DNA of 45,020 nucleotides, counting the filler, from Catajapyx aquilonaris (Eukaryota), in the NCBI GenBank assembly GCA_000934665.2. It is 2 parts of 2 records of this genome, joined end to end, with 100 filler letters (N's around TTAATTAATTAA, not from the genome) between each part and the next. Parts side by side here need not be neighbours in the genome. Positions count along the whole stretch, not along the records: positions 21,373 to 45,020 come from JYFJ02006091.1; 1 more part is not named here. One strand, given 5' to 3'. Of the stretch, positions 26,976-45,020 are shown piece by piece. The notes beneath the pieces are model-generated. The model ran no database searches. It had not been told where the DNA came from and saw nothing but the letters and a program-made list of their open reading frames with translations. The position numbers and the translations under genes are program-made. Positions within the stretch are counted from its first letter, which is position 1. Each line of letters opens with the position of its first letter.

Positions 26976-27272
26976 GGGAGACGGAGTGGCGCCGCGGTAA
27001 CGCGTGCGCCCACGGAAGTTAAGGTCCCGGGTTCAATCCCCACCCGGGGTTCCCACCTTCTTTCGTGCAGAGTTGGGCCATCTTTGGCTTCGTTTCGGGT
27101 GGCAATTTCCGATAGACTAAGCCACCCGGGGGAGTTCACAAAATGACCAATTAACGACAGCGCACATGCACTTTGCACATCCCATCCTAACTACCTTGGA
27201 GTATACTAATAAGATTATTCTTAACTCGCTCCAAAAAAAACAAATACCAATGGTGGTAATCCACCACCCCCT
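26976..27272 (+). mobile_element. tRNA-derived SINE, family B
   Basis: A box TGGCGCCGCGG, B box GGTTCAATCCC; 3' part TGGTGGTAATCCACCACCCCCTA resembles the family A tail. Confidence 0.7.
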
Positions 27273-27713: not shown

Positions 27714-28720
27714 AGAGAGATAGGGGGCCGTTCGTCCCGCCGGTGGGCGTGGCTTAGAACAAGAGGGGGGGGGGACAATGGGAGGGGGGGGGAACAATAG
27801 GGTGAGGGGAGCCCCCCTCATGGGGGGGTCGTAGACGAGGGGAGAGAAGAACAATGGGGCTCGTGCCACCCACGCGTAGGGGGCTGAATAAACAGGGGGG
27901 CAGGTGTAGGAGGGGGGCCCCCTCATGGGGGCCGTATAAACAGACGAGGGGGGCTGTTTGAACAGGGGTGCATAATTAATTAGCATTCAATTACGGTTAA
28001 TTACGGTCAATTACATGCAATTGCAGTCCACGTGGAGTAGAGGGGGGCTGTATAGACAGGGGGCTGTTTGAACAGGGGTGCATAATTATTTAATTAATTA
28101 GCATTCAATTACATTCAATTACATGCAATTGCAGTCCACGTGGAGTAGAGGGGGCTGTTTGAACAGGGGTGCATAATTAATTACATTCAATTACACAAAA
28201 TTACATGCAATTACATGCAATTACACTCAATTACACTCCACGTGGAGCAGAGGGGCAGGTGGAATGCGGTGGAATGCGGTAGAATGCGGTAGAATGCGGT
28301 AAAATTCACCTGTTCGTAGACGCGTCTTGCACACTGGTAATGGATGCCCTTAGAAATAATTAGTAGCAGCTAGTAGAAATTATTAGTAGCAATTAGTAGC
28401 AACTAATAGCAGCTAGTAGCAATTAGTAGCAACTAATAGCAGCTAGTAACAGCTAGTAGCAACTAATAGCAGCTAGTAGCAGCTAGTAGCAACTAATAGC
28501 AGCTAGTAGCAGCTAGTAGCAGCTAGTAGAAATTATTAGTAGCAACTAGTAGAAATTAGTAGCAACAAGTGGCAATTGAACCGATGATGATAATAGTTCG
28601 TAATCATTCGTAATCATTCGTAATACAGTAACAAATTGTTATAACCGCCACATATTTTTACAACTTACAACTGAAGTACGGTAATGAGAGTTTTGAGGGT
28701 TCGCACATGTCTGAAAATAA
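27714..28720 (+). repeat. Left terminal inverted repeat
   Basis: 28032-28720 is the reverse complement of 44508-45020. The outer end at 27714 is inferred from the AG-dinucleotide terminus and the LINE junction. Confidence 0.85.
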
Positions 28721-29559
28721 ATAGCAATTGCACATTAACCCGCTATATTGCGTTAGTAATAATATATTACTTGCGTACATATTACCCTATTTTACACTAT
28801 TTACACTATTTACACATTATGAAATAATATTGTAGACCGGTATATATTATTACAAGGCATGAGAGGGTTTTGGGTTTTTACCACGGGTCTTTCAAAAATA
28901 AAACCCTAACCCTCCGCAACCCTCCGCATCCCCTCTCACCTGGTCGAGGGGCCCTCGCGACAATTTATTCTGTCAGAGATTAATTACCTAAGAGGGGAGT
29001 TGAACTCAGCTTGAAAAGGTGGAAAAAAGGTGCAGTGAAAATAAAAATATGGGTAAGTGCAATACTGTAGGCTAATATTATTGCGCAAGTTCCTTCGAGT
29101 CTTGAATCTCATGCTGCATAACCGCTCTGACACCCTGCATAAGACGCTAAGTGGTGCTATGACTCGGTTTTGTTCCGTTTTGGTGGCAAAATATTATTAA
29201 TAGGGTTGGTTTTTAACGGTTTTTAAAAAGGAGGGCCGCACTTGTCCCTTACTAGACATAATTATATCGTCAGCAATCTGGTACCAATCCACAGCAATTA
29301 GCAGCAGTCAAGCCGACAATATCGGACACTAGCTGAATGCTCGCGAATGTTCGAGAATGTTCCGGAATGTTCCGGAATATTCTGGTGGGTTCTAAATGTT
29401 TCTAGATGTTTCTAGATGTTTCTACGGGTCTTTTTTAAAACCAACCCTTGTAGCTGGTCGAGGGGTCCCGGCGAAAATATTACCGGTATGCAGAACTTTC
29501 TAGATGGTTCTAGACTTAATTCCCAAACAAAAGCCCGGCCCCCACACGTAAATGGCCCT

Positions 29560-29706
29560 CCTCCTACTTTTACGTCATGTCACGTGATACCATATCGATA
29601 CCATATCATAAACATATCGATACGATATATCGATATATCGCGTGATGCCCCACCTGGTGGCAAAAAACCGTATAAAAGAAGCAGCGGGTCGGTAAAATCT
29701 TCAGTC
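29560..29706 (+). promoter_or_regulatory. Putative Pol II promoter for pPolB: E-box, 3x DRE, TATA, Inr
   Basis: CACGTG 29581; TATCGATA at 29593, 29615, 29628; TATAAAAG 29671; TCAGT 29701. Confidence 0.65.
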
Positions 29707-30524
29707 TGGCTCGGGCTTGCTCGAGCTCAAGACTCCCTCTCCCGCCTAGGGAGGACTTGGGGTCGGGCTCTGCCCCTTCCCTGCCCCTTCCCTGCCCCTT
29801 CCTTACCCTGGTCGACCCTGCCGATTCAGCGGGCTTGTCCTGCTACTACGGGGAAGACCGGACCCACCCCACCCACACCACTCCACTCCACCCCACTCCG
29901 ACGTTGACCCTGCCGATTCAGCGGGCTTGTCCTGCTACTACAGGGAAGACCGGAGCTCCTAGTCCTACTAGCCAAACTACTCGAGCTGTCCTTGGACCTG
30001 ACTCTTTTTTTCCTCGTTCATTATTTTCTTGACCGCACGGGGTGTTTGGGAGAATATCCCACCCCCGTCCCTGACCTCCCTGACCTCCCTGACCTCCCTG
30101 ACCTCCCTTCCCCACCCCTGCCATGCCATGCCATCCCATCCCATCCCATCCCACCGCACCGCACCGCACCGCACCGCACCGCCCTCCACTCCAACAGGGG
30201 GCTGAGTCGGACTAAGGCAGACTAAGGCAGGCTAAGTCGGAAATAAATCGGAATAAATCGGAAGAATAAGTGGGAATAAGTTGTCGCCAGATGGCGATGC
30301 AAGCTATTATGCTCATATTCTTGTCCATATTCTTGACCATATTCTCTCTACATTTTTGTTTGTTTTTGTGAGAGAATAGTGGTTATAGAATAGAGCATAG
30401 GCTACTCTCTGCATAGTGTGCCTTTTTCTAATTGTGGGTGTGGGTGTGGGTGTGGGCGCGCGTGGGTGTGCACGGAGCGGTACGGAGCTGCACGGAGAAG
30501 TAAAAAAATATATATATATAAAAA

Positions 30525-33500
30525 ATGCGCGAGTTCAGTGTGAATGGAGAGCCTGTGAGCAAGGGCAGCAACATGCTGTTGCACATGTTCCGGGCATGTT
30601 TCTCTCAAGCAGACGTGGAGTATGCCCTGAGTCGATTCCATGTGTTGGACCGCTACGTGACGACTCTTGCCGTAGAACGACTGGGAGAGCTGAATGTCGA
30701 TCCCTCAACAATACGCGACGACGGGTTCCAGGCGATGCTGGCTGGTGCTGCGTATGTGGAACGAGGGCAGCGAGTGGAGCGAGTGGAGCGAGTGGAGCGA
30801 GTGGAGCGAGTGGAGCGAGTGGAGCGAGTGGAGCGAGTGGAGCGAGTGGAGCGAGTGGAGCGAGTGGAGCAATCGACTGAATCGAGGGAACAGTCTAGCA
30901 GTATACCAGAAGCTCCTCTTCAACAACTTTGGTCGACAACCGCGGCAGCCACTCCTAAGGTTGGTACCGTTGTAAACGATTATGTACGCGATTATGTACG
31001 GGATTATGTAAGCGATTATGTACGCGATTATATACACGATCACGTACACGATCACGCACACGAAGCTATGCCAGCTGCGGCACACCCTATTCTCCCTTCC
31101 CCCAATTACCTACAGACGGGCGCTGCTCACGATGGTCAACCGTTCTGTCCCCATATCCGTGGTGGTGGTCAACCGGCCGCCGCTGTCCGTAAGGCCCGCC
31201 GTCGTTCTAGTACTGCTAGTACTGCTAGTACTGCTAGTACTTCGAGTACTGCTAGGAGTGCTAGGAGAGCTAGACCAACCGTCGATATACAAGAGCGAGT
31301 ACAAGAGCGAGTGCAGGAGCTCCGCCGTCCTCATCCAGCAGAGCAACCAGCAGAGCAACAAGCACAGCAACAAGCCCCCGCTGACAACTTTCCCGGTGAA
31401 GTGAACCTATCTTCTTCTTCTGCTGCTGCTGCTGTTGCTGCTCCCCCTGTCCATTCTCTCACAATCCCCCCAGCCCGCCCCCCCGCCCGCCCCCCAGCCC
31501 GCCCCCCAGCCCGCCCCTCCTCTGCCTCCAAGGCGCGCTCCAATGCGCGCTCCAATGTTTCTGCATTTGTCATGCCCTTTAAAAAAAGAAAGTTTAACCC
31601 CATTGAAGAAAGCACCGCTTCCTTAGTTCCTTCCTTAGTTCCTCCCTTTGCCCATCCTGAGCCAGCTATTCGGCCTATTACCGCTACTGCAACCATACGA
31701 GTAGACCCGGCCAATGACTCGCCTCAGGTCCCCCCAACCGTTGGCGTGCAAGATGGCGTGCAAGATGGCGTGCAAGATGAGTTGGCACCCCGAGTGTCAC
31801 CTCCGTCACCACCCCCGTCACCAGGTGGCAGCAGGAGGTTTAAACTAATGGGCGAGAAAGTAAGATTCTTAAAAAGGTATAACACCCATGCTGCGGAAAT
31901 TTCTCTCCGCATTGACGCAGCCCCCGAGCACACCCCCCTTCTGGATTGGATAAGGGGTGTTACTGAGGATATTATTACCTACGTCAAATCTCGCAATAAT
32001 ATTAAGGAACAAGACTTCATTCAGATGGAGCTGACACGAGGCAGTGGATCCGATACCGAGAATGTTTATATTCACCCTAGAAGAGCCTCGCAACTAGATG
32101 CAAATGCCATACTCTTCCAGGTGGAAGCAGCGGCACAGTCAGAGAGGGGGTCTAATGTAATATCTCCAAGTGGAGGAACCCTGCATGTTAATGTAATTCA
32201 TGTCTCGGCAACAGCAGGGAGAGGGCACCAGAATTATAAGAAATTTAGGGGGATGAAGTTTGAACAGAGGTGTAGGACGCAAAAATCTTTTGTCTATATA
32301 CACAACAAAGACAATCTCTGTCTTCCTCGTGCACTCGTCGTGGCTATTGCCGATGTTGCCAGAAATGAACGTCGTATTCCGCAGAGTGAATTCCGTGCAA
32401 TTTGTGACACATCCAGGCAGAAGGTAGAAGCGGAGAAACTGACCAGAGAAGCAGGAGTAGCTGTTCCTGAGGGTGGATGTGCTCTGGAGGAGATCATACT
32501 ATACCAGCACCATCTGGTGGACTATAGGATATGTGTCTTTTGCGATGAGTCGAAAGAATGGGTGTACAATGGTCCAGAGTCGACCGTGGAGCAACCCAGG
32601 AAGCCTCTCTACTTGTACTGGTCGACAGAGCGCCACCATTTTTGTCCAAGCTTCTCTGCTGCTGCCATGTTGCTGGCTGAAGCTTTTTGTGAGACTTGCA
32701 TGAAACGGACAAAGGGGACTCATCGTTGCAAAGGGATTTGCAATGCATGCCAGCGCAGCCCCAGCTGTTCGGATGTCTCCGAGGGTGCCCCGCAGAAAAT
32801 TTCTTGCAAATCCTGCGCCAGAGATTTTTACGGCAAGGATTGTTTTGAGCGTCACCTGGTGAGCAGTGGTACTGCCCCTTCTTTGTGTGAAAAACTCTTT
32901 GTCTGCGTAAAATGTTCCTCGTTGGTCGACATGCGAAAGAGGGGTGGCATTCGTGGCAAGGCCAAGCATGTCTGTGGAGAAAGGTATTGTCGAGTGTGCA
33001 AGAAGATGGTGGGAAAATCCCACCTTTGTTTTGTACAACCATACACGACCCCAGCCCACCTCGAGAAATACCTGCCTAAACATTTGCAGAGGGTAGTCAG
33101 GGTACAGGAGCCCAAAAACAAGAAACCCAGGTTAGAGAAGCCAGTCAAGCCAGCCAAGCCAGTCAAGCCACGGGCAGATTTTGTGTTTGTCTTTTTCGAC
33201 ATCGAGACTACACAAGACCGCAATCACCCGGGACTAGACCATGCTTGGGAACACGAGGTGAATATGATCGTTTCTGAACAGGTGTGTTCCACCTGCCTGG
33301 ACGTGAAGGAGCTAGTATGGTGCAACATGTGCGGGGTAAGAAAAAACGTGTTTTATGGCTCTACTTCCCTCCATGCCTTTGTAGAATATGTGCGGGGTAT
33401 GAGAAATGCTAGAGAAGTTGTAGTTATTACTCACAACCTCAAGGGTTTTGACGGCCAATTTATTCTTAAAGAACTCGTGACGGTGCAAGGTAGAGAACCT

Positions 33501-36041
33501 ACTATTATTGCTAATGGCCTGAAGATTATGTATATAAGGGATGGGCACATAACATATAAAGACAGTGCCAATTTCTTACCCATGCCCCTTGCAAAACTGC
33601 CCGAGGTTTTTGGGTTCACGGAGCTCAAGAAAGGATATTTTCCCTATCTGGCAAATAGGACGGATAACCAGGATTATGTGGGGCCCCTGCCAGACGTGCC
33701 ATATTATGACATAGATTCCATGAGTGTCGAAGGAAGAGAGAAGTTTCTGACCTGGTATGCGGATGAGAAGGAAAAGCTGGGGGATTCCGGTTTCATCCTT
33801 AAGGATCAGCTGATTGACTATTGCTCGTCAGATGTCGCCATATTGAAAACGGGCTGTCTGCGATTCAGGGAAATTTTTCTATCTGAAAACGGCATCGATC
33901 CCTTGATTGAAGCTGTAACTCTTCCCCAGGCCTGCCACCTAACTTTTAGGCGTAATATGATGCCGCATGGTACGATTGGTGTGATTCCCTCAGGGGGCTA
34001 TCGGCATGATAAGCAATCGGGCATTGCACTGAAGTGGTTGCACTGGGAAGATTATAATATTAAGAAGAAGGGGTCGGCACTTGGACCATTTGGACCATCC
34101 TTAATAACTAGCGCAACCAGCGAACCCAGTGTATCCAGTGCATCCAGTGCGTCCAGCTCATCCAGCGGGTCCAGTGCATCCAGCTCATCCAGCGGGTCCA
34201 GCGCAATGAACGCCGGTGAAAAAGTGGCCTTGACCTTCCAAGGGAATGGATCGGAAACCCGCATAGGGAGATACAAGGTGGATGGGTACTTGCGAGATGG
34301 TGAAGTCACGCACGTATATGAGTTTTACGGATGCTATTTTCACGGGTGCCCCACGTGCTTCTCCAATAGCAGAGTGTCTCTGGAGGATGACCCATTTTCC
34401 ACCATGGACGTCAGATACCAACGTACCATGCAGAGGGAGGCTACCATAAAGAGGTGGGGGAATGTTGAATTTCACGTCATGTGGGAGTGCAAGTTCAGAG
34501 CACAGATGCGAGTCAACCCAGAGCTCCGCGCATTTATTTCAACCCTGCCTGATAACATGGAGCCGATCAATCCCAGGGATAGTCTGATGGGTGGCAGAAC
34601 CGAGGCCTACAAACTATTTTTTGAACCTGGGGAAGGGGAGAGAGTAGATTATGCTGACGTCACATCCCTCTATCCCTGGGTCTGTAAATACGGCGTATTC
34701 CCTGTTGGTCACCCGGAAGTAATTACCAGAGACTTCCCCCCTCTGGATTCATATGAAGGGGTGGTGAAATGTAAAGTTTTGCCACCGACTGGTCTGGACA
34801 AACCGGTGTTGGGGAGCAAGATCGGTGGCAAACTAGTCTTTACACTATGCAGAAAGTGCGCAAAACACCTGCAGCAGACAACTTGCACCCACACAGACAA
34901 CGAGAGAGCCCTAATTGGCACCTGGGTGTCACTGGAACTCCGAAAGGCCCAAGAGATGGGGTATGACATCATCGAGTTCTACGAGGTGTGGAAATACAAC
35001 GTAACCAGCTACGCTCCGTCTGACAGCAGCACCGTGAGCCCATCCGTGAGCCCATCCGTGAGCCCAGCCGTGAGCCCATCCAAGAGCCCAGCTAAGAGCC
35101 CTACTGATAATCTGGGACTTTTTGGGTCTTACATAAACACCTTCATAAAAATGAAGCAGGAGGCATCAGGCTGGCCTAAATGGTGTAAAACCGACGAGGA
35201 CAAGGCGCAGTACATTCGCGATTATGAGATCCGAGAGGGGGTGACACTCGAATGCAGCAGAATTTGTAATAATCCTGGTCTGAGAGCACTCGCAAAATTG
35301 ATGTTAAATAGTTTTTGGGGTAGATACGCTCTGAATCCTGCGAAAGCGCGCACCAGAGTTGTGCATACTGCCCAACATCTATGGGAGATTCTCCTCGAGC
35401 CGGGGTGTGAGGTAACCTCTCTTATACCGGCGGGTGACACAATGTATGTCACGAGCAAGCCCTTAGATGGCGTGTCCTCATGCCATCCAACAACAAACGT
35501 CATTCTAGGGGCCTTTACCACCGCTCAGGCTCGCCTAAAGCTGTACGAGTATTTGCACGAGTTGAAAGACCGCACTCTTTATTGCGACACTGACAGCGTT
35601 ATATATGTGACCCGCCCCGGTGAGAGGCTTTTGCCTACCGGCGATTATTTAGGCGAACTTACAAACGAGCTTGAAGCCTATGGACCTGGGGCATCCATAA
35701 CCCTCTTCTGCTCTGGCGGGCCCAAGAACTATGGATACGTTGTTAAAAACGGCCTGGGGGAAGAGTCGGTGGGCCTTAAAGCCAAAGGAATCAGGCAGAA
35801 TTATAGGACCTCTCAGCAGGTCAAACTGGAGACCCTGAAAGGCATGGTTTTAGGAGAGGGGCCATCTTCATGTCTCATTCGCGACCCGAGGAAAATTGAG
35901 AGGTTGCAAGACCACTCTGTGGTATCAAGGGCCGTCGAAAAGACCTATAAAATCGTATACGACAAGAGAGTCAGACAAGGTCACGACTCCCGTCCGTATG
36001 GGTTCAGAGCAGAGAGTGAGCAGACAGTGACCAGGCAGTGA
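30525..36041 (+). CDS. polB: Protein-primed family B DNA polymerase polyprotein (low-complexity N-term, TP/vOTU-like region, Zn-finger region, exonuclease, inserted nuclease-like domain, polymerase)
   Basis: NKDNLCLPRAL; Exo FFDIET, HNLKGFDG, YCSSDV; VDGY..YEFYGCYFHGC insert; Pol motifs DVTSLYP, KLMLNSFWG, YCDTDS; 1838 aa uninterrupted. Exact start uncertain. Confidence 0.96.
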   Translation: MREFSVNGEPVSKGSNMLLHMFRACFSQADVEYALSRFHVLDRYVTTLAVERLGELNVDPSTIRDDGFQAMLAGAAYVERGQRVERVERVERVERVERVERVERVERVERVERVEQSTESREQSSSIPEAPLQQLWSTTAAATPKVGTVVNDYVRDYVRDYVSDYVRDYIHDHVHDHAHEAMPAAAHPILPSPNYLQTGAAHDGQPFCPHIRGGGQPAAAVRKARRRSSTASTASTASTSSTARSARRARPTVDIQERVQERVQELRRPHPAEQPAEQQAQQQAPADNFPGEVNLSSSSAAAAVAAPPVHSLTIPPARPPARPPARPPARPSSASKARSNARSNVSAFVMPFKKRKFNPIEESTASLVPSLVPPFAHPEPAIRPITATATIRVDPANDSPQVPPTVGVQDGVQDGVQDELAPRVSPPSPPPSPGGSRRFKLMGEKVRFLKRYNTHAAEISLRIDAAPEHTPLLDWIRGVTEDIITYVKSRNNIKEQDFIQMELTRGSGSDTENVYIHPRRASQLDANAILFQVEAAAQSERGSNVISPSGGTLHVNVIHVSATAGRGHQNYKKFRGMKFEQRCRTQKSFVYIHNKDNLCLPRALVVAIADVARNERRIPQSEFRAICDTSRQKVEAEKLTREAGVAVPEGGCALEEIILYQHHLVDYRICVFCDESKEWVYNGPESTVEQPRKPLYLYWSTERHHFCPSFSAAAMLLAEAFCETCMKRTKGTHRCKGICNACQRSPSCSDVSEGAPQKISCKSCARDFYGKDCFERHLVSSGTAPSLCEKLFVCVKCSSLVDMRKRGGIRGKAKHVCGERYCRVCKKMVGKSHLCFVQPYTTPAHLEKYLPKHLQRVVRVQEPKNKKPRLEKPVKPAKPVKPRADFVFVFFDIETTQDRNHPGLDHAWEHEVNMIVSEQVCSTCLDVKELVWCNMCGVRKNVFYGSTSLHAFVEYVRGMRNAREVVVITHNLKGFDGQFILKELVTVQGREPTIIANGLKIMYIRDGHITYKDSANFLPMPLAKLPEVFGFTELKKGYFPYLANRTDNQDYVGPLPDVPYYDIDSMSVEGREKFLTWYADEKEKLGDSGFILKDQLIDYCSSDVAILKTGCLRFREIFLSENGIDPLIEAVTLPQACHLTFRRNMMPHGTIGVIPSGGYRHDKQSGIALKWLHWEDYNIKKKGSALGPFGPSLITSATSEPSVSSASSASSSSSGSSASSSSSGSSAMNAGEKVALTFQGNGSETRIGRYKVDGYLRDGEVTHVYEFYGCYFHGCPTCFSNSRVSLEDDPFSTMDVRYQRTMQREATIKRWGNVEFHVMWECKFRAQMRVNPELRAFISTLPDNMEPINPRDSLMGGRTEAYKLFFEPGEGERVDYADVTSLYPWVCKYGVFPVGHPEVITRDFPPLDSYEGVVKCKVLPPTGLDKPVLGSKIGGKLVFTLCRKCAKHLQQTTCTHTDNERALIGTWVSLELRKAQEMGYDIIEFYEVWKYNVTSYAPSDSSTVSPSVSPSVSPAVSPSKSPAKSPTDNLGLFGSYINTFIKMKQEASGWPKWCKTDEDKAQYIRDYEIREGVTLECSRICNNPGLRALAKLMLNSFWGRYALNPAKARTRVVHTAQHLWEILLEPGCEVTSLIPAGDTMYVTSKPLDGVSSCHPTTNVILGAFTTAQARLKLYEYLHELKDRTLYCDTDSVIYVTRPGERLLPTGDYLGELTNELEAYGPGASITLFCSGGPKNYGYVVKNGLGEESVGLKAKGIRQNYRTSQQVKLETLKGMVLGEGPSSCLIRDPRKIERLQDHSVVSRAVEKTYKIVYDKRVRQGHDSRPYGFRAESEQTVTRQ

Positions 36042-36332
36042 CTCACCCCCAGACTTTGTTTTATAACCAATATTGTACCAAATTACCAAATCAAATGCCA
36101 AATTATTATGTGAAATCATTTATTTATGCATTTATTTATGCATTTATTTATGCATTTATGGTGTATATATTGCAAAAAGTGTGCACTTCCCCACTTCACC
36201 CTATGTATATATTTTGTGTAAAATTGTAATCAAATACAGTTCAAGTTCAGACACGGTCAGACACGGTCAGACACGGCCAGACACGACCAGACACCGTCAG
36301 ACACTGTCAGACACTGTCAGTAACTGCCAGAC

Positions 36333-37001
36333 ATGGGGGAGGAATCGTACGAGTCTTCTTTCGTCTCCTTTCAACACCCGTTCACAGCCATTGTTTCAGA
36401 ACCAACAGGTTGTGGAAAATCCGTCTTTGTGGAGAACCTCATTCGCCAAGGGGACCTACTTTTCAGCTTAAAATTTGGACGCATAATATGGTGTTATGGT
36501 GAGTGGCAAAATCGCTATGCTGATATGCAAAGTCAACTAGGTGTTACGTTTCACGAGGGGGTTGTCGATATGAAGAGTTTTGACGGTTCAGAACCCGCAC
36601 TGATAATTTTAGATGACTTGATGCATGAAGCCGATTCATCGGTGGGCAAGCTTTTCACGAAAGGAAGTCACCATCGCAATCTGAGCGTCATTTTCATAAC
36701 TCAAAACATCTTTCACCAAGGTAGACATTTTCGCGACATGTCCCTCAACACTCACTATCTAATTTTGTTCAAAAATCCGCGTGATCAGTCTCAGATAGTG
36801 TACCTTGCGCGACAACTTTACCCTGAACACCCTCGTTTTTTCGTCGGTGCTTATGCAGATGCGACCAGTAGACCTCATGGCTACATAGTTGTAGATCTGA
36901 AGCAAAATACTCCCGATGTGTTGCGCGTGCGCACAAGCATTTTTACTCACGAGCAGGAAAATGGAGGCGTCATTGTTTACGCTCCCTCGAGGAGGGTTTA
37001 A
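36333..37001 (+). CDS. A32/FtsK-like DNA packaging ATPase (Walker A altered)
   Basis: HPFTAIVSEPTGCGKS, LIILDDLM (Walker B), FTKGSHHRNLSVIFITQN, LFKNPRD. Confidence 0.92.
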   Translation: MGEESYESSFVSFQHPFTAIVSEPTGCGKSVFVENLIRQGDLLFSLKFGRIIWCYGEWQNRYADMQSQLGVTFHEGVVDMKSFDGSEPALIILDDLMHEADSSVGKLFTKGSHHRNLSVIFITQNIFHQGRHFRDMSLNTHYLILFKNPRDQSQIVYLARQLYPEHPRFFVGAYADATSRPHGYIVVDLKQNTPDVLRVRTSIFTHEQENGGVIVYAPSRRV

Positions 37002-37018
37002 TACGGCAAGAAGGAAGG

Positions 37019-37077
37019 TATAAAAGCGAATATAAAAGCGAATATAAAAGACTGTAGGGCTGTTTCAAAAGTTAGTT
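37019..37077 (+). promoter_or_regulatory. Putative promoter of the structural/integrase cassette
   Basis: TATAAAAG x3 (37019, 37031, 37043); TTAGTT Inr-like at 37072, 29 bp after the last TATA. Confidence 0.6.
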
Positions 37078-37251
37078 GTCGGATAGTGATTGTGAAGGGC
37101 GCACCGTGGGTTTGCGTGGGTCTCTCTGTGCTCGCACCGTTCTCGCACCGTTCTCGCACCGTGCTCAAACAGTGCTCACACCGTGCTCAAACCGTGCTCA
37201 CACCGTGCTCAAACCGTTCAGACCCTTCAGATCATTCAGATCATTCAGACT

Positions 37252-37584
37252 ATGTCATCCTCCCTCCATCACCACAAGGACCTCCTCAAGATTATTTCCA
37301 AGGCGAACCCAAAGGTCAGGAAGGTCATATTTGAAAACGCCGACGGAAAATTGGTGAATTGTGTTTGCGAGATCGTTGCAAACGCGCTGCAGGGCACGGT
37401 ACCAATCTCTCATTCGCTTAAAAAGAAGCTCTCCCCGCACAAGAAGTCACTTCGCTTGCTGAGCAACAAGCGGATTGGTTGGAAAAAGCGGCGTCGCATT
37501 TTAACACAGAAAGGAGGATTATTTGCCGCAGCTGCTCCACTCATTGCAGCCGTATTGCACGCAATATTCGGAAAAATACTCTAA
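37252..37584 (+). CDS. Conserved small basic Polinton protein (110 aa) with C-terminal QKGG plus amphipathic tail
   Basis: CVCEIVANALQGTVPI...KKRRRILTQKGGLFAAAAPLIAAVL; first ATG after the promoter. Confidence 0.8.
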   Translation: MSSSLHHHKDLLKIISKANPKVRKVIFENADGKLVNCVCEIVANALQGTVPISHSLKKKLSPHKKSLRLLSNKRIGWKKRRRILTQKGGLFAAAAPLIAAVLHAIFGKIL

Positions 37585-37607
37585 CTGCTATAACTACTAC
37601 AACTACC

Positions 37608-38291
37608 ATGATTCGCGGAGTGAGAAAGATGGTTCTTGTCCCGATAGAAACGTTACAAAAGCTGCGTGAGTCATCTGTTCCGGTAAGCCTCTCCCTCCCC
37701 CCACCCATAGGACCAGAGCACCAGCTAACTTCCAATGTTGCCAGGCTAGAAAAAGACATGCAAAATGCTCTTGAGAGAAATGATTTGCATGATACCGATA
37801 GATGGCAGAAATACCTGCGAGCATTGCACAGTTATGCCGCTACGGCTCGTAGTGCATCAGCCGCATCGGCCCCCCGACATCCAAGCGGAGATCCCCCAAT
37901 GGCCGACGTGAGGCACCTGGCTATGCAGTCGGTGCCTCAGAATTTGCATAGCAAGGGAGAAAGGTTGTTAAAGTTTTTGGAATCGACAGGAAAAGTTCGT
38001 TGGAACGAAAGAGGCGAGGTAACTCTGGACGATGGTTTCATACCTGGAACCAACATTACCGACCTGATGTATGATGTATTAGTATCGAGAAAAAATTTTC
38101 AGCCCTCGGGATGGCAGGATTTTGCCGATTTTCTTGCAAAACACAATGTTTCCCATACATTCATCGCCAACTCGCAGCGACTCGATTACATTAAAAGCCG
38201 CCAAGGGGGGACTACTCCAGTCAGAACACCCAGAAAGCGAGGCAAGAAGCAGCATCAACAACAAGGTTCCGGCAAGTGGATAGAGTTCTAA
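37608..38291 (+). CDS. Conserved Polinton protein of unknown function (227 aa)
   Basis: KMVLVP...WNERGEV...GTNITDLM...PSGWQDF...QGSGKWIEF pattern typical of an ORF next to the integrase in Polintons; ACCATG start. Confidence 0.78.
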   Translation: MIRGVRKMVLVPIETLQKLRESSVPVSLSLPPPIGPEHQLTSNVARLEKDMQNALERNDLHDTDRWQKYLRALHSYAATARSASAASAPRHPSGDPPMADVRHLAMQSVPQNLHSKGERLLKFLESTGKVRWNERGEVTLDDGFIPGTNITDLMYDVLVSRKNFQPSGWQDFADFLAKHNVSHTFIANSQRLDYIKSRQGGTTPVRTPRKRGKKQHQQQGSGKWIEF

Positions 38292-38434
38292 CCACGTTTT
38301 AACCTAAGTTCTAGCTCTGTTCTAGCTCAGTACTTACCTTGTTCTAGCTCAGTTGAGTCAGTTCTAACCTTGTTCTAACCTTGTTCTAGCTCAGTCCTAA
38401 CCTGGTTCTAACCTGCTTCTAGCCTGCTTCTAGT

Positions 38435-39538
38435 ATGGCAGAGCTGTTATCGGGGGTGTACTATGACGTGACAAATCCTGCAGGACTAGCTAGCAAGAAG
38501 AAGTTATGGGAGGAGGTTAAGGACCGGGTCGGGAGAGAGGAATTCGAAGAGTGGCTCGAGGGTCAGCGCACCTACACTCTGCACAAACCGGCCAGGAAAA
38601 AGTTTAGGAGGAACAGGATTGTCGTTTACACGATCGATCAACAATGGCAGGCGGATTTGGTTGATTTAAGAAGCCTTAAAAGTCACAATGACGGGTACTC
38701 TTACATCCTGATGGTTGTTGACTGTTTCTCAAAATACGCGTTTGCAGTGCCGTTGAAAACAAAGACGGGACCAGAGATCACTAGAGCATTCGCCAAGATA
38801 TTCGCAGAGTCGGGTCGCAAACCGTACAAGTTAAATACAGACGCAGGAGGCGAATTTACCGGGAGGACGGTCCAGATCTTTCTTGGGGAAAATGGTATTA
38901 CTTTCTTTGTGGCCCGCAACGAGGCTGTGAAAGCGAGCATTGTCGAGAGGCTAAATCGCACTATAAAGACCCGCATGTGGAGGTACTTCACCTACAAAAA
39001 TACGCACCGGTACATTGATGTGTTGCCCGATCTGATTAATGCTTACAATAATTCATACCATTCTTCAATTAAAATGCGACCCGTGGACGTCACTCACGAT
39101 AATACGAAGGAGGTGTGGTATAACTTATACGGTGATTTAATTGGGAGGAGAGTAGGAGCAGTAGGAGCAGTAGGAGCAGTAGGAGCAGTAGGAGGGTATA
39201 AATACAGCATTGGGGATGCTGTGCGGATTAGTCGCAACAAAGCGACGTTTGAAAAAGGATTCGAGCAAAACTGGAGCGATGAAGTGTTTCACATTGTACG
39301 AATTGAGAGAAGAGATCCGCCAGTGTATTAGATCAGTGACCAGAACGGTGAAACTATTGTCGGCACTTTTTATGAAGCTGAACTGCAGAAGGTGCGGCCC
39401 GATTCAGTCTACCTCATCGAAAAGGTCCTCTCCTCCCGAAGAGACAAGTCAGGAGGGAAGGAATACCTGGTAAAGTGGAGAGGATATCCAAAGTCGTTCA
39501 ATAGCTGGGTGCCGGAGGCAGACATCGTGGAGCCATGA
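38435..39538 (+). CDS. int: Retroviral-like (DDE) integrase with C-terminal chromodomain, interrupted by in-frame TAG at 39329-39331
   Basis: WQADL, VDCFSK, TDAGGEF, VERLNRT. After the TAG the frame continues ISDQNGETIVGTFYEAEL...YLIEKVL...EYLVKWRGYPKSFNSWV to TGA 39536-39538. Confidence 0.93.
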
Positions 39539-40407
39539 ATCGGGACTTTTACATGACCTTGCCTTCAAACAGCTCAATGGGCTACTTTCCGGCCAATACT
39601 CTCACCCGGTTCATAACCAAGTTGCCACAGCAGATTTCACTATCGGGAGAATGGGAGGTCGGTTTGGTGGAAGTATCGTACCCCACCTCCATATACAATA
39701 TCACGCCCGAATTTAATAAGATATACTATAATTACGGAACAAAGAAAGGCGGAGGAAACGTTGCCACCATTCCTCCTGGGCGATACCAGCACGTTACGGA
39801 CCTTATTTCCGCCATTAATGAGGTGAATGGCCTGCCAGAGAAAGCCTACATAAACTTGCTGACGGACAAAGGTACCTCACGCGTCACGAGTGCCATTCCG
39901 CAGGATCACCACATGACATTTAGTCCTGAGCTACGTGAAATTCTAGGCTTCGACGAGGTGCCTCCCCCAAATAGCGTGACCCTAGTGAGTGAACCTCTGA
40001 CGCAGGTGCGAAAAATGTATACGTTTGACTTGTCCAAGGATGCTTCTACTGCTCCCAAAAAAACCATGACCCAAGTGACCGAACAGCGAGCTCTGAAGAA
40101 GGTACGAGGAAGGGACACGATTGTCTTGAACAAGCACATGCCCAGATCGCTCTTCATTTATTCCGACATTGTTGAACCACAGTTGGTGGGTGACACGTCA
40201 GCGCCTCTGTTGCGAATCGTTGGGGTAGACATAAAACCGCACAAGAACCAAGTCGTTGAAACGTTTTCGAGCCCCCATTACGTGAGGGTGCTGAAGAGGG
40301 ACTTTGACACGATCGAGATTGACATAAGGGGAGACACTGGCTCCCCAGTGCCATTTGGCGAGGGGAGGACGATAGTGAAGCTTCACTTCAAGAAAGCTCC
40401 GATTTGA
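39535..40407 (+). CDS. Minor capsid protein (penton-like)
   Basis: FYMTLPSNSS..FPANTLTRF..LSGEWEVGL at the N-terminus; FIYSDIVEPQLVGD..PLLR..IEIDIRGDTG..VKLHFK at the C-terminus. Confidence 0.88.
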   Translation: MNRDFYMTLPSNSSMGYFPANTLTRFITKLPQQISLSGEWEVGLVEVSYPTSIYNITPEFNKIYYNYGTKKGGGNVATIPPGRYQHVTDLISAINEVNGLPEKAYINLLTDKGTSRVTSAIPQDHHMTFSPELREILGFDEVPPPNSVTLVSEPLTQVRKMYTFDLSKDASTAPKKTMTQVTEQRALKKVRGRDTIVLNKHMPRSLFIYSDIVEPQLVGDTSAPLLRIVGVDIKPHKNQVVETFSSPHYVRVLKRDFDTIEIDIRGDTGSPVPFGEGRTIVKLHFKKAPI

Positions 40408-40538
40408 GCTCCGATTTGAGCTCCGATTTGAACTCCGATTTGAACTCCGATTTGAACTCCGACTTGAGCCCCGACTTGAACTCTGATTTGAGCCCCGATT
40501 TGAGCCCCGATTTGACCGATTTGAGCCCCGCAACAAGA

Positions 40539-41141
40539 ATGAACCCCGCTTCTGGACTTCAGGGAAGACTCCCGCTTACCTATGTGCAGGATTATTACTT
40601 AAAACAAGTGGGTGCCGGACCCGTCTTCATCGGATCTAGATACCAGAAGGGCCACGATCTCGGAAGCTTCTTTAGTGGGTTATTCAGAGCTGCGATGCCA
40701 ATTTTATCTAAGGGGTTTCGGGCCTTTGGGAATCAGGCGTTGACTAGTGGGGCGAGTCTTTTAGGTGACGTCATAACTGGCGTACCAGTGAAAGCGGCGG
40801 CTAATGCCAGATTCAGAGAGGCGGGCCAGGCATTGGGAACAAAACTGAAGCGAAAATTGGATGACATGCAAACAGGTTCGGGGAAAAAAAGGCGATATGT
40901 ACGGCTTGCAACCAAAAAACACCCTCATTCATTCCGTAGAGCTCGCGGTGCGAGGGTAGTCGGTAGAAAGCCTTCCGTAAAGCTGGGTCGAAAGCGTTCC
41001 GTAAAGCTCGGTCGAAAGCGTTCCGCAAAGCTCGGTCGAAAGCGTTCCGTAAAGCTCGGTCGAAAGCGTTCCGTAAAGCGTTCCGTAAAGAGTTCCGTAA
41101 AGCGTTCCGTAAATCGTAAGCACAACGATATTTTTGGCTGA
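40539..41141 (+). CDS. pX/pVI-like core/membrane-active precursor with basic repeat tail (200 aa)
   Basis: DYYLKQVGAG..YQKGHDLGSFFSGLFR amphipathic segment; QTGSG; KR-rich tail ending DIFG. Confidence 0.8.
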   Translation: MNPASGLQGRLPLTYVQDYYLKQVGAGPVFIGSRYQKGHDLGSFFSGLFRAAMPILSKGFRAFGNQALTSGASLLGDVITGVPVKAAANARFREAGQALGTKLKRKLDDMQTGSGKKRRYVRLATKKHPHSFRRARGARVVGRKPSVKLGRKRSVKLGRKRSAKLGRKRSVKLGRKRSVKRSVKSSVKRSVNRKHNDIFG

Positions 41142-41194
41142 AATCTTTGAGTAAGAGCCAAAGTAAGAGCTAAAGTAAGAGGCGAGTTCAGAGC

Positions 41195-42502
41195 ATGGCG
41201 TTCCTCCACAACGAGTCATTCGAAGCTACGAAAAGTGAGTTAGATCTGTTTGCCCTCCCTCCAACGCAAACAGCTATTGATCATGGAATGTGGGTTCAAT
41301 ATAAGCCAATTTCTTCCATATCAAACTCGGGACCAATCGAATTTGTAGTGTCGGGTTCTGGAGATTATTATCTCGACCTAGCGCACACACAATTGCACAT
41401 GCGGGTGCAGATTCGCAACAAGAACGGGACTAACCTGGTGGCGGATGCGAAGGTCGGTCCAGTGAACAACTGGATGCACAGTCTCATTAGCCAGATCGAG
41501 GTGTATCTCAACCAGAAACTGGTGACACCGGCTGCCAATACTTACCCTTATCGCGCCTATCTGCAAACTCTGCTATCCTACGACCAACAGGCAAAGAGTA
41601 GCCACCTGTCTTGTGCATTGTGGGACGCTGACACACCGGGAGAATGCGAATCCATTGACGCTGTAAACAAGGGTTTCACGGGACGGCAAAAGCACACCGC
41701 GACTTCCAAGCAAGTGGACTTGTACGGTCCTTTGTTTTGCGAGGTATTTAACATGGAGAGGCACATGCTTAACGAAGTTGAACTCAAGCTAAAGCTAATT
41801 AGGTCTAAAGACGTATTTTCCCTCATGGGGGACGCCGACACTTACGAGGTTCACGTAGTGGACGTCACGCTACATGTTAGAAAGGTGAAAATCTCCCCGA
41901 AAATCCTGCTGGCTCACAGCGCAGTGTTGGAGAGGGCGACCGCCAAATACCCTATGACCAGATGCGAAACGAAAGCCATAACCATTCCAGCCCATGTGAC
42001 CGGTAAGGTTTTAGATAACATTTTCTTGGGGCGAAACCCCAAACGGGTTGTAATCGGCTTGGTGGATAATACGGCTTTTAATGGAACCATTACTTCCAAC
42101 CCATTCGATTTCAAGCATTTCAAGCTCAACAGTCTTTCTCTCTACCTTAACGGCGAGTCCATCCCCTCGAAGCCGCTCCAACCTGACTTCGGATCGGGTC
42201 TGTACGTACAGTGCTATAACACACTGTTCTCGGGGACAGGAATTCATTACAACAACGAGGGCAATGGCATAACTAGGGACGATTACGCCAAGGGTTACAC
42301 TCTGTATGCTTTCGACATGACTCCCGACTTAACAGGCAGTAATGCGACACACTGGAATGCAATTAAGCAGGGTAGCCTTCGAGTGGAGCTGGGATTTGCA
42401 GAACCCCTGCCGAACGCGGTTAACTGCATCATTTACGCGGAATTTGACTCGCTGCTTCAAATAGATAAGGCTCGCAACGTTACTCTCGAGATGACAGCCT
42501 AA
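41195..42502 (+). CDS. Major capsid protein (double jelly-roll, hexon-like), 435 aa
   Basis: KSELDLFALPPTQT, PIEF, YLDLAHT, YPYRAY, NPFDFKHF, GYTLYAFD, IYAEFD; size and position fit. Confidence 0.93.
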   Translation: MAFLHNESFEATKSELDLFALPPTQTAIDHGMWVQYKPISSISNSGPIEFVVSGSGDYYLDLAHTQLHMRVQIRNKNGTNLVADAKVGPVNNWMHSLISQIEVYLNQKLVTPAANTYPYRAYLQTLLSYDQQAKSSHLSCALWDADTPGECESIDAVNKGFTGRQKHTATSKQVDLYGPLFCEVFNMERHMLNEVELKLKLIRSKDVFSLMGDADTYEVHVVDVTLHVRKVKISPKILLAHSAVLERATAKYPMTRCETKAITIPAHVTGKVLDNIFLGRNPKRVVIGLVDNTAFNGTITSNPFDFKHFKLNSLSLYLNGESIPSKPLQPDFGSGLYVQCYNTLFSGTGIHYNNEGNGITRDDYAKGYTLYAFDMTPDLTGSNATHWNAIKQGSLRVELGFAEPLPNAVNCIIYAEFDSLLQIDKARNVTLEMTA

Positions 42503-42509
42503 TGCCGCC

Positions 42510-43031
42510 ATGAACGGTTCACAAATTATCAGCCTTCTGAAACCGCCTCTCTCGCATATTTTTCGCGGGGTTTACTCTGCAGACACTCTCCCCCGTAATG
42601 TAAGTCTACCATGCGCCTTAATTGTTAACAGCGATAAAGCCTCGGAACCAGGCACCCATTGGCTGGCAATATATGTAGACGCAAGTGGTGATGGCGAATA
42701 TTTTGATAGCTATGGGCTTTTTCCGATCTCCATCGACTTTGTGCGATTTTTAAATGCAAACTGCAAAGTGTGGAGGTACAATTCGCAGTGTCTGCAAAAT
42801 TTAGACTCTAGCGTATGCGGCCATTACTGCATGATGTATTTGCACCACAGGGCGAAAGGTGATACCTCGGCGGAGTTTTTATCCCAGTTTTCACATCAGC
42901 TGCAGAAAAACGATTGCAAAATGCTACAAATGTTTGAAAAAGTTTTTGGATGCATGGGAAATGTATGCAAAGATATGACGGTAGAACCATGCCAGAGCTG
43001 CATACCCGGTCAAAGGTACAAGTGCAAGTAA
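42510..43031 (+). CDS. Adenain-like cysteine maturation protease
   Basis: PGTHW (His), YFDSYG (Asp), LQ..SSVCGHYC (Gln/Cys); GCCGCCATG Kozak; AATAAA at ~43042. Confidence 0.94.
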   Translation: MNGSQIISLLKPPLSHIFRGVYSADTLPRNVSLPCALIVNSDKASEPGTHWLAIYVDASGDGEYFDSYGLFPISIDFVRFLNANCKVWRYNSQCLQNLDSSVCGHYCMMYLHHRAKGDTSAEFLSQFSHQLQKNDCKMLQMFEKVFGCMGNVCKDMTVEPCQSCIPGQRYKCK

Positions 43032-43063
43032 AAACCCGCAAAATAAAAACCCGTAAAAACGGC

Positions 43064-43124
43064 ACTTCCTTGTGGGCGGGGCTTTCCGCTATATAAAGCC
43101 AGCGCTGGATGGGAGTCTCTCAGT
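43064..43124 (+). promoter_or_regulatory. Putative promoter of the AlkB-like gene
   Basis: ACTTCC, GGGCGGGG, GGGGCTTTCC (43078-43087), TATATAAAG 43090, TCAGT 43120. Confidence 0.6.
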
Positions 43125-43274
43125 AGTCAGTACTCTCACAACCTTCTCACAACCTTCTCACAACTCTCTGGACCGCTCTGGACCGCTCTGGACCGCTCTG
43201 AACCACTGGCGGAAAGTGGGCTCTCCCAGGGCTCTCCCAGGGCTCTCCCTCTCTCGCTCTCCCATTGTCTTGAA

Positions 43275-43306
<32 letters not shown>

Positions 43307-43413
43307 AACCTCTCTACATCTGGCCTATACATCTGTCTTACATCTGTCTTACATCTGTCTTACATCTGTCTTACGTCATCTGCTCCTCATCTTCTCCACA
43401 CCCACTCCCATCA

Positions 43414-44316
43414 ATGTATGGGCTCACAGCTTTAAATCCACATGACCGTAGAAATGGCCTTCCAAGGGACATTCCAAGGGACATTCCAAGGGACATTCCA
43501 AGGGACATTCCAAGAAACATTCCTAGGGACATGACTCACATGACGCACATGACTGAGATGAGTGAGATGAGTGAGATGAGTGAGATGAGTGACATGACTG
43601 ACATCCCTCCCTCCAAGAGGCGTTATTGCTCTACCACTGCGGAGGAGGAGGAGGACTGCGAGACGGAGGAAACGGATCAGGAGCTGGTGATGTTTGCAGA
43701 TGGGGTGCAAGCACGCAGCCCCCTGCATTGGCGCAAAATTCTGGATTTGGATTTGGACGTGTCAAGTTGCAGGCTTCTAACCAACGACTCGGCCACCGGG
43801 CTTTTCGAATTCTTAGAGAATAACGTGGAATACCTTTCCCCGGAAGACTCTATGGTGCAGATTCGAGGGGAGTGGCGCAAAATACCACGAGAAGTGACGG
43901 CATTTGGAGAATCCGACGATCTCTCCATCGCCTTCTCAGGTTCGATTTTATCTGCGCAAGAATGGCCACGAGTACTAGAACAGCTGAGTAACGTCTTGTG
44001 GGTGCAATCAACATATCGATTCAACTTTGTGACGGTGAATCGTCTCTCCACGGGAAAGTGCAGCATTGGACTACACAAAGAGGTTCAAGGGAGCCCGTCC
44101 GAGGCGTTTGCAGTTGTCACCTTGGGATCCCGACGCTCTGTCGTGCTGATGTCAGAAGATGGCAGAAAATTCCACCTGGACCCCTTGCGTATGAAATCAG
44201 GGGTAGGTCATTGTATCCTTGTGAAACCACCCACTGCAAGCAAATGGTTCATTGAGGTTCCAAAAGATAACTTTTCTCGTGGAGTTTCGCTTGTATTAAT
44301 TTTTCAGCGTGTGTAA
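43414..44316 (+). CDS. ALKBH2-like 2OG-Fe(II) dioxygenase homolog, catalytic ligands degenerate (~300 aa)
   Basis: LFEFLENNVEY..VQIRGEWRKIPR..FSG..W..VL..FNFVTVNR..IGLHKE..VTLGSRR..PPT..W parallels recalled ALKBH2. First ATG after Inr is 43414; AATAAA at ~44452 and ~44477. Confidence 0.85.
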   Translation: MYGLTALNPHDRRNGLPRDIPRDIPRDIPRDIPRNIPRDMTHMTHMTEMSEMSEMSEMSDMTDIPPSKRRYCSTTAEEEEDCETEETDQELVMFADGVQARSPLHWRKILDLDLDVSSCRLLTNDSATGLFEFLENNVEYLSPEDSMVQIRGEWRKIPREVTAFGESDDLSIAFSGSILSAQEWPRVLEQLSNVLWVQSTYRFNFVTVNRLSTGKCSIGLHKEVQGSPSEAFAVVTLGSRRSVVLMSEDGRKFHLDPLRMKSGVGHCILVKPPTASKWFIEVPKDNFSRGVSLVLIFQRV

Positions 44317-44338
44317 GTCTTAATATATACAGTACGTA

Positions 44339-44342
<4 letters not shown>

Positions 44343-44379
<37 letters not shown>
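44343..44379. repeat. (TA)n microsatellite
   Basis: About 18 TA units in the 3' UTR region of the AlkB-like gene. Confidence 0.95.
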
Positions 44380-44381
<2 letters not shown>

Positions 44382-44507
44382 GGCTTTGTGAAATTCGGTT
44401 TGTGTAAAAAACAAAAAATACTGTATGTTAAAATAATTATTATAATTATCCAATAAAATTCAATTTTTAAAAAAGCAATAAAAGTGTCTTTATTATTTTT
44501 ATTTTTA

Positions 44508-45020
44508 TTATTTTCAGACATGTGCGAACCCTCAAACCCTCATGCTTTTTCAGTTGTAAGTTGCAAGATATGCGACGGGTATACTAATTATTTGTTACTG
44601 TATGTATTACGAATGATTACGAACTATTATCATCATCGGTTCAATTGCTACTAATTGCTACTAATTATTTCTAGTGGCATCCATTACCAGTGGGCAAGGC
44701 GTGTACGAACAGGTGAATTTTACCGCATTCTACCGCATTCTACCGCATTCTACCGCATTCCACCGCATTCCACCTGTCCCTCTGCTCCACGTGGAGTGTA
44801 ATTGAGTGTAATTGCATGTAATTGCATGTAATTTTGTGTAATTGAATGTAATTAATTATGCACCCCTGTTCAAACAGCCCCCTCTACTCCACGTGGACTG
44901 CAATTGCATGTAATTGAATGTAATTGAATGTAATTGAATGTAATTGAATGCTAATTAATTAAATAATTATGCACCCCTGTTCAAACAGCCCCCTGTCTAT
45001 ACAGCCCCCCTCTACTCCAC
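44508..45020 (-). repeat. Right terminal inverted repeat (truncated by window)
   Basis: Reverse complement of 28032-28720. Confidence 0.93.

Follow-up and report, generated by a model that had tools for sequence, protein, structure and literature searches.

A conserved and very probably non-catalytic ALKBH2-derived protein carried by a Polinton of Catajapyx aquilonaris

Here we describe a gene in a stretch of 45,020 nucleotides (nt) of Catajapyx aquilonaris DNA (assembly GCA_000934665.2), which as a whole we call the window. The gene lies within a Polinton/Maverick element and encodes a relative of ALKBH2, and we are confident that its product is a conserved, non-catalytic Polinton protein. 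Taken as a whole, our observations are best explained, with moderate confidence, by a pseudo-enzyme that is carried as cargo, kept by selection and acts by binding. An original prediction, made from the DNA alone, had described an intact but apparently dead ALKBH2 homologue in a Polinton. The homologue is indeed there: the frame is open over 300 amino acids (aa), ALKBH2 is matched by phmmer at E 1e-18, and the element has a protein-primed DNA polymerase (pPolB), an rve integrase and terminal inverted repeats. The features of the gene are as follows.

43414..44316, plus strand: open reading frame (ORF) of 300 codons plus stop, putative ALKBH2-derived pseudo-dioxygenase, with ATG at 43414, TAA at 44314-44316 and an uninterrupted frame
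43414..43695, plus strand: N-terminal tail, residues 1-94, acidic (isoelectric point, pI, 4.5) and of low complexity
43606-43623, plus strand: PPSKRR at residue 65, within the N-terminal tail
43726..44313, plus strand: ALKBH2-type double-stranded beta-helix domain, residues 105-300, from phmmer, AlphaFold2 and Foldseek
43855..43896, plus strand: remodelled hairpin VQIRGEWRKIPREV, residues 148-161 (human ALKBH2 99-112), from the alignment
44074..44082, plus strand: H221-K222-E223 replacing the His-X-Asp metal motif, from alignment columns
44251..44253, plus strand: I280 replacing the second metal-binding His (human H236), from alignment columns
44287..44307, plus strand: S292-L-V-L-I-F-Q298 replacing the R-x-N-x-T-x-R 2-oxoglutarate strand, from alignment columns

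The motifs quoted in the original prediction all fall where it had placed them: VQIRGEWRKIPR at residue 148 of the 300-residue protein, FSG at 174, NRL at 209, IGLHKE at 218, KWFIEVP at 277 and SLVLIFQ at 292-298. Human ALKBH2 numbers are taken from the phmmer alignment, anchored on the residues named in the review PMC12295762.

The protein descends from metazoan ALKBH2 and has kept the whole fold. The top phmmer match among PDB chain sequences is human ALKBH2 (3h8o_A, E 1e-18, residues 105-284), and twelve human ALKBH2 entries are matched at E 1e-18 to 4e-17, with ALKBH3 reaching only E 0.2-0.4 (best 0.21) in the same search. The alignment pairs H221/K222/E223 with the H/R/D of human ALKBH2, and WFIEVP with WYHSLP. 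An AlphaFold2 model of residues 95-300, with an alignment of 111 sequences as input, has a mean predicted local distance difference test (pLDDT) of 94.8 and a predicted template modelling score (pTM) of 0.90. The proposed structural check against ALKBH2 and ALKBH3 was made with Foldseek, which ranks ALKBH2 complexes with double-stranded DNA (dsDNA) first (3rzj_A: template modelling score, TM, 0.91, root-mean-square deviation, rmsd, 1.4 over 200 columns, 28% identity), then ALKBH3, and after it ALKBH6 and E. coli AlkB. The best viral structure match, in BFVD, is a Yasminevirus 'alkB-like 2-like' protein (TM 0.85, E 1.3e-19, 24% identity). No Pfam family, 2OG-FeII_Oxy_2 (PF13532) included, was found for the domain or for its relative P0002 at E up to 10, in searches where the HMMER filters drop most weak matches.

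For the comparison of individual sites, a full HMMER scan of 1.84 billion representative proteins gave 292 matches at E up to 0.001. The aligned set consists of the window domain and the best 110 of these by E-value, namely 3 relatives and 107 other ALKBH2-like proteins; four matches to the N-terminal repeats alone were left out. The five classical cofactor positions read as follows.

Human H171: H in 94 of the 107 others; H221 in the window
Human D173: D in 91 of the 107 others; E223 in the window
Human H236: H in 82 of the 83 others having a residue there; I280 in the window, I or L in its clade
Human R248: R in 80 of the 107 others; S292 in the window, S or A in its clade
Human R254: R in 83 of the 107 others; Q298 in the window, Q also in P0002

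The cofactor site was predicted to be lost, and the H, E, I, S and Q of the window at these positions bear this out. The Fe(II) triad of active AlkB and ALKBH2 (H171, D173, H236) is incomplete, and their RxxxxxR strand is missing together with Y161, N250 and T252, which are replaced by L211, V294 and I296. All five polar residues that hold 2-oxoglutarate (2OG; Y161, R248, N250, T252 and R254) are changed, four of them to aliphatic or small residues and R254 to Gln. P0002 has A, Q, F, A and I at R248, R254, Y161, N250 and T252. The lesion-recognition side is affected as well. D173, E175, Y122, N231 and R254 form a hydrogen-bond network at the amino group of the flipped base, according to the available extracts of PMC12295762, and all five positions are altered in the window, E175Q among them.

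The original prediction also held that the losses are concentrated at catalytic sites, and the counts agree. Of the 48 positions that are at least 75% conserved in the 107 other ALKBH2-like proteins, 8 belong to the cofactor site, and 2 of these are retained in the window, against 28 of the 40 others (Fisher p 0.04). When Y122, E175 and N231 are joined to the cofactor class, 2 of 11 are kept against 28 of 37 (p 0.001). The cofactor and lesion-recognition residues have thus been selectively replaced.

Inactivity had been deduced from the ligand changes, and this deduction holds in part. The exchange of Asp for Glu cannot by itself show inactivity, because some 2OG oxygenases use His-X-Glu. The loss of the second His is also less telling than expected by the original prediction, as the H236A mutant of ABH2 is described in the available extracts of a review as only slightly lowered in activity (PMC12295762). 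Since Glu is tolerated elsewhere and the H236A effect is mild, the case against activity depends on H236, R248, R254, Y161, N250 and T252 being lost together, and above all on the 2OG site.

The replacements are not peculiar to this copy. Among the matches listed, the clade comprises the window copy, the P0002 cluster of three near-identical proteins, the partial L003 and the fragments P0003 and P0004. P0002, the sole full-length relative among them, shares 90 of 194 residues with window residues 107-300 (46%) with 0 gaps, and reads HKE, WYLEFP and AIAIIFQ, so that the five classical positions are altered in the same sense as in the window. P0004 reads HKE and P0003 RKE, and the partial relatives P0003, P0004 and L003 carry the same replacements where they are covered, with Arg at the H171 position of P0003. 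The equivalent of E223 is thus found in 4 of 4 members and that of H221 in 3 of 4. The loss of ligands is therefore common to the homologues, as the original prediction required, at all positions in P0002 and where covered in P0003 and P0004. F102R, K104E, H106R, K111E, Q112V, D166C and E175Q are likewise present in 4 of 4 members over the parts covered. These seven belong to 21 positions that are invariant in the clade yet rare (10% or less) in the 107 others, and D173E, L223C, R241D, K243F, T252I and R254Q are further examples. Word-indexed protein searches found no relative besides P0002, P0003 and P0004, and a viral contig collection gave none with the protein, the clade alignment, the capsid candidate or the ORF upstream of a relative as queries. 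The window copy and its relatives appear to be a small, previously undescribed clade of ALKBH2-derived pseudo-enzymes.

Two ALKBH2-like proteins outside the clade also deviate at the catalytic positions: P0101 at 3 of 5 (N for the second His, L and K for the Arg residues) and P0106 at 4 of 5 (Q, L, H, V). Catalysis may have been lost more than once in ALKBH2-like proteins, or these two may be pseudogenes.

Our selection estimates are two pairwise comparisons, a small sample. Over 194 gapless codons the window and L002 differ at a proportion of 0.84 of synonymous sites (pS, saturated) and 0.395 of non-synonymous sites (pN), with 53, 67 and 30% identity at codon positions 1, 2 and 3. The closer pair, L002 and L003, shows 8 synonymous and 5 non-synonymous changes in 95 domain codons, a ratio of non-synonymous to synonymous rates (dN/dS, omega) of 0.185; in the linker, where counts are small, omega is 0.52. 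The predicted excess of synonymous over non-synonymous change is found in both comparisons, which indicates long-term purifying selection on the protein. Copy-specific decay of the ligands is rejected, because the loss is common to relatives as diverged as P0002 (46% identity) and synonymous sites are saturated, with pS at 0.84 against a pN of 0.395.

A quick maximum-likelihood tree was built from the 86 rows that have 175 or more domain residues. It unites the window and P0002 with a Shimodaira-Hasegawa-like approximate likelihood ratio test (SH-aLRT) support of 99, on a long stem of 0.75. The nearest rows by path length are the ALKBH2 proteins of Tribolium, Strigamia and Dalotia (beetle, centipede and rove beetle), and the grouping of the clade with insect sequences has a support of only 61%. 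We infer that the dead state is old and has been maintained by selection, and that the protein is therefore a pseudo-enzyme. As the relatives do not retain the ligands and dN/dS is not near 1, this reading stands.

What the protein might bind can be approached through the residues around the former active site, whose roles in the ALKBH2 hairpin, pocket and loops we take from the available extracts of PMC12295762. The hairpin at residues 148-161, whose counterpart in ALKBH2 inserts into the DNA duplex, is the best-conserved stretch of the clade, and F102R, K104E, H106R, K111E and Q112V are all fixed in it. The position of the intercalating Phe102 is occupied by Arg151, and Arg110 is retained as Arg159. 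The claim that the substrate-recognition lid is retained therefore holds for its scaffold, but the lid has been remodelled at these five positions. The pocket walls V99, R110, S125 and I168 are retained in the clade, as are the stacking residues F124 and H171 in the window. The basic RKK loop, which grips the complementary strand in ALKBH2, is DNF or DQF in the clade, G204/K205 of the long loop are deleted, and the R198 position is M or T. Conserved cysteines specific to the clade stand at the D166 and L223 positions (Cys216 and Cys267). The predicted PPSKRR and acidic patch (EEEED) are found in the N-terminal tail, where residues 1-94 also contain the in-frame repeats PRDI (five times) and (E/H)M(S/T) (nine times). 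The tail is acidic in both lineages (pI 4.5 in the window and 4.6 in P0002), but these repeats are absent from that of P0002.

The retained pocket walls and stacking residues, the conserved hairpin and the lost clamp loops form a pattern that fits the holding of one strand or of a single extruded nucleotide. We tentatively propose that the protein may bind without oxidising, by means of its pocket and remodelled hairpin. Its ligand, DNA or RNA, would be held by one strand or by a single extruded nucleotide; the protein could act in the nucleus, to which the KRR motif points, and the acidic, disordered tail could recruit or repel other factors. A bolder version of this proposal, which we regard as rather doubtful, is that a Polinton lineage, probably of arthropods, captured a host ALKBH2 that became the first known AlkB-family pseudo-enzyme, a base-flipping reader that does not remove the mark. 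Such a reader would act on one strand, by seizing a nucleotide that is extruded and alkylated or methylated. It could then mark or shield the replicating DNA of the element, or block host direct-reversal repair or silencing there, and the acidic tail would be its effector arm.

The element that carries this gene as accessory cargo is a Polinton/Maverick that looks intact; its other features in the window are listed here.

27949..28614, no strand: left terminal inverted repeat, from inverted-repeat pairing, outer limit not fixed
30525..36041, plus strand: protein-primed family B DNA polymerase, 1838 aa, Pfam PF03175, E 7.7e-34, 117.8 bits (cut-off 25.8)
36333..37001, plus strand: packaging ATPase candidate, Pox_A32 E 0.011 and Adeno_IVa2 E 0.019, both under the Pfam cut-offs
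38435..39331, plus strand: rve-type integrase, Pfam PF00665, E 1.1e-13, 51.7 bits (cut-off 32.6)
41195..42502, plus strand: capsid protein candidate, DJR-like_dom E 0.085, under the Pfam cut-off
42510..43031, plus strand: adenovirus-type cysteine protease candidate, Peptidase_C5 E 0.0048, under the Pfam cut-off
44606..45020, no strand: right terminal inverted repeat, from inverted-repeat pairing, running off the end of the window

The capsid, ATPase and protease matches are all weak, the gene order fits a Polinton, and all core ORFs of the element are open. The terminal repeats pair over 218 nt (28088-28305 with 44727-44944, 96% complementarity) and over 105 nt (28032-28136 with 44916-45020, 97%). 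The ALKBH2-like gene directly follows the protease candidate and is the last gene before the right terminal repeat, with its stop codon 290 nt inward of the repeat. A host gene outside the element is ruled out by this position, with the protease gene on one side and the right terminal repeat on the other.

The gene also seems to have promoter-like and polyadenylation-like signals of its own, as had been predicted. They were found in the sequence only, the TATA box by a pattern search.

43090..43097, plus strand: candidate TATA box TATATAAA
43120..43131, plus strand: two TCAGT initiator-like motifs, at 43120 and 43127
43122..43413, plus strand: putative 5' leader of 292 nt with 0 ATG
44452..44482, plus strand: two AATAAA polyadenylation-type signals, at 44452 and 44477

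The TATA candidate lies 48 nt past the AATAAA at 43042 that trails the upstream protease gene. TCAGT, which we take to be the arthropod-type initiator, occurs 30 and 37 nt downstream of the start of the TATA box, and the two AATAAA signals follow the stop codon by 136 and 161 nt. The leader is filled with tandem repeats of periods 11, 10, 11, 4 and 11, and beyond the ATG at 43414, inside the ORF, the periods change to 12, 9 and 18.

A similar pattern is seen across the element, which is dense in short tandem repeats between 28000 and 44400 (73 rows from Tandem Repeats Finder, TRF, for 26000-45020). We tabulated 53 of the 73 rows, from 28782 to 44379, of which 4 straddle an ORF end. Of the others, 26 lie inside ORFs, and in 23 of these the period is a multiple of 3; among the 23 rows outside ORFs the same is true of 7 (Fisher p 4e-5, for overlapping rows that are not independent). 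Such frame-preserving minisatellite expansion within viral genes is unusual, and the in-frame periods count toward the coding reality of the ORFs of the element. The Pfam match of the polymerase starts near residue 959, and the preceding ~950 residues (30525-33400) are rich in repeats and unassigned. The terminal repeats are themselves made of tandem units, of ~108 nt and several 10-nt periods, so that several pairing registers exist. A 163-codon ORF (29416-29907), placed after the left terminal repeat and before the polymerase gene, has no Pfam match, contains two period-11 tandem repeats (29586-29628 and 29770-29802) and may not be coding. Three unassigned Polinton ORFs had no match to PDB sequences at E up to 1, save one chance-level row at E 0.7. 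Outside the Polinton, at 24407-24788, lies a unit of ~380 nt with inverted ends of 50-58 nt (88-95% complementary) that resembles a miniature inverted-repeat transposable element (MITE).

Other copies in the same genome were sought in the four sequencing runs that carry the gene, by mapping their contigs to 43060-44520; a fifth run contains next to nothing of the gene. One or more siblings, which resemble the window at ~90 to 97% over the contig pieces listed, differ from it by in-frame indels of 3, 3 and 6 nt, among other changes. H221, E223, I280 and S292 are untouched by any sibling difference listed. One sibling contig runs from 43122 straight to 43424 and from 43466 straight to 43599; the leader repeats, together with an in-frame stretch of 132 nt (44 codons) in the N-terminal repeats, are therefore absent or replaced in it, and the repeat arrays vary between copies. 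A fragment of 73 nt, 44020-44092, encoding FNFVTVNRLSTGKCSIGLHKEVQG, has a summed contig depth ~ten-fold higher than its surroundings and differs from the window by two changes, both synonymous, in codons 211 and 213. It can be termed the most conserved motif of the gene; its unaligned flanks (loose ends of 30 letters) have diverged yet are in frame, and their translation differs only conservatively from the protein of the window. We take this as a hint of a second family of this gene in the genome, one that is both more abundant and further diverged.

Several points weigh against a selected pseudo-enzyme that acts by binding. The clade is tiny, the C-terminal ligands are covered by P0002 alone among the relatives, the omega of 0.185 is based on 13 changes, sibling copies in the same genome are decaying, and L003 shows a gap of 1 base in its N-terminal region. 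Arg at the H171 position of P0003 means that this stacking and metal-binding His is not universal. All four runs that carry the gene are DNA, from one sample and one study; no RNA run is among those listed, which speaks neither for nor against expression, and the expression side consists of sequence signals alone. The contigs that carry the relatives are short (1.1 to 2.6 kb), and in the two examined, L001 and L002, no neighbouring Polinton gene was recognised. Judging from the loss of Y122, E175, RKK, G204/K205 and R198, binding of dsDNA in the manner of ALKBH2 is unlikely. Two features concern the window copy in particular: its branch in the tree is 2.4 times longer than that of P0002 (0.78 against 0.32), and its domain has a net charge of 0, where the P0002 domain is at +6 and the median for 84 other ALKBH2-like domains is +7. 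Given the long branch and the neutral charge, the window copy may be under relaxed constraint and a poorer candidate for a DNA-binder.

The ORF that lies upstream of the relative's gene (L001 3-476, L002 1-267) has no Pfam match, and tblastn finds no counterpart of it in the window (best E 4.8). A language model likens it to arthropod hypothetical proteins (0.95) and more weakly to Maelstrom-domain proteins (0.89), which is a lead only.

The neutral charge of the window domain bears also on the main rival explanation, in which the fold is a mere scaffold and the hairpin and acidic tail form a new protein surface, making the protein a decoy or adaptor for, as an example, a host repair, replication or silencing factor. 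The five fixed, clade-specific hairpin changes include the Lys-to-Glu reversals K104E and K111E, RKK has become DNF or DQF, the G204/K205 loop is deleted and the tails of both lineages are acidic, all of which would suit a protein partner as well as the net charge of 0 does. However, the P0002 domain is as basic as true ALKBH2, and the pocket and stacking residues V148, R159, F174, S175, I218 and H221 are conserved without an obvious role in a protein interface. We consider a decoy unlikely.

It is also conceivable that the clade was once functional and that the window copy is a neutral relic, drifting in an endogenised element and open by chance. Besides the long terminal branch and the lost positive charge, the siblings could be cited here: of 31 changed codons among the differences listed, 21 are non-synonymous, including a stop at codon 198 in one sibling, and 10 are synonymous, in a count that leaves aside 18 further differences and the cluster at 44230-44236 (which includes a 2-nt insertion whose frame is not placeable). 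These siblings look neutral, as is expected of endogenous copies. Against this, the window copy has an open frame of 300 codons, aligns to P0002 without gaps up to the final residue and retains all of the clade-specific signature residues. Its repeat expansions are in frame (periods 12, 9 and 18), and it sits in an element with open core ORFs and terminal repeats that are 96-97% alike. A relic seems distinctly improbable to us. That the protein is still an oxygenase or another enzyme, with a non-canonical metal site (H221, E223 and, for example, Cys216 or Cys267) and a co-substrate other than 2OG, is very improbable: H221 and E223 persist in 3 and 4 of 4 members, the cysteines at the D166 and L223 positions are new and conserved, and H236A lowers ABH2 activity only slightly (PMC12295762, in the extracts available), but all five polar 2OG residues are replaced and P0003 has Arg at H171.

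If the pseudo-enzyme reading is true, it stands out in a family, AlkB, whose members are studied as enzymes. The clade would have given up Fe(II) and 2OG binding under selection while keeping the fold and the flipped-base pocket, and would be a natural 'reader' form of a DNA-repair enzyme. It would also offer an apo-ALKBH2 scaffold, stabilised by nature, with which to separate the parts of lesion recognition that need catalysis from those that do not. For Polintons/Mavericks, where the cataloguing of cargo is at an early stage, the gene would be a new kind of accessory gene, and it hints at virus-like elements that engage host pathways of DNA damage or base modification. No report of an AlkB-family gene in Polintons, Mavericks or adintoviruses was found in the literature searched, as far as its available text extends, and a search for AlkB pseudoenzymes gave nothing relevant among the papers listed, judged by title. 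To our knowledge, no AlkB-family pseudo-enzyme has been described.

The closest known system is ALKBH2 itself, as human ABH2 and in arthropods. The protein shares with it a fold of ~200 residues (TM 0.91, rmsd 1.4, 28% identity) and 28 of the 40 conserved positions outside the cofactor site, including R110, F124-S125-G126, W134, N154-F155, N159-R160 and H171. It differs in the incomplete triad (D173E, H236I/L), in the loss of R248, R254, Y161, N250 and T252 in the clade, in the replacement of the lesion network residues Y122, E175 and N231, in the change of the Phe102 finger to Arg and in the lost RKK and G204/K205 loops. The window gene is moreover borne by a mobile element and encodes an acidic, repeat-rich tail. 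Three features of active family members, the triad, RxxxxxR and a match to the Pfam model, are absent from the protein.

Other systems resemble it in single respects. Pseudo-enzymes are known in the 2OG-oxygenase superfamily, for example JmjC proteins without metal ligands, which likewise have kept the fold, lost the ligands and been retained for binding, but belong to another family. The AlkB-type dioxygenases of viruses, such as the AlkB/ALKBH2-like proteins of giant viruses and the replicase domains of plant RNA viruses, are also virus-borne AlkB folds; they are annotated as dioxygenases (by annotation only), whereas the clade described here is without ligands and, in the window, is found in a Polinton. 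Polinton-like viruses carry Tet-like dioxygenases, according to the available parts of two preprints (bioRxiv 10.64898/2026.06.19.733378 and 10.64898/2026.10.13.758929). These are likewise cargo of the 2OG-oxygenase superfamily in small eukaryotic dsDNA viruses, but they are of the Tet/JBP and not the AlkB family, and the same parts present them as enzymes that modify DNA bases and not as inactive proteins.

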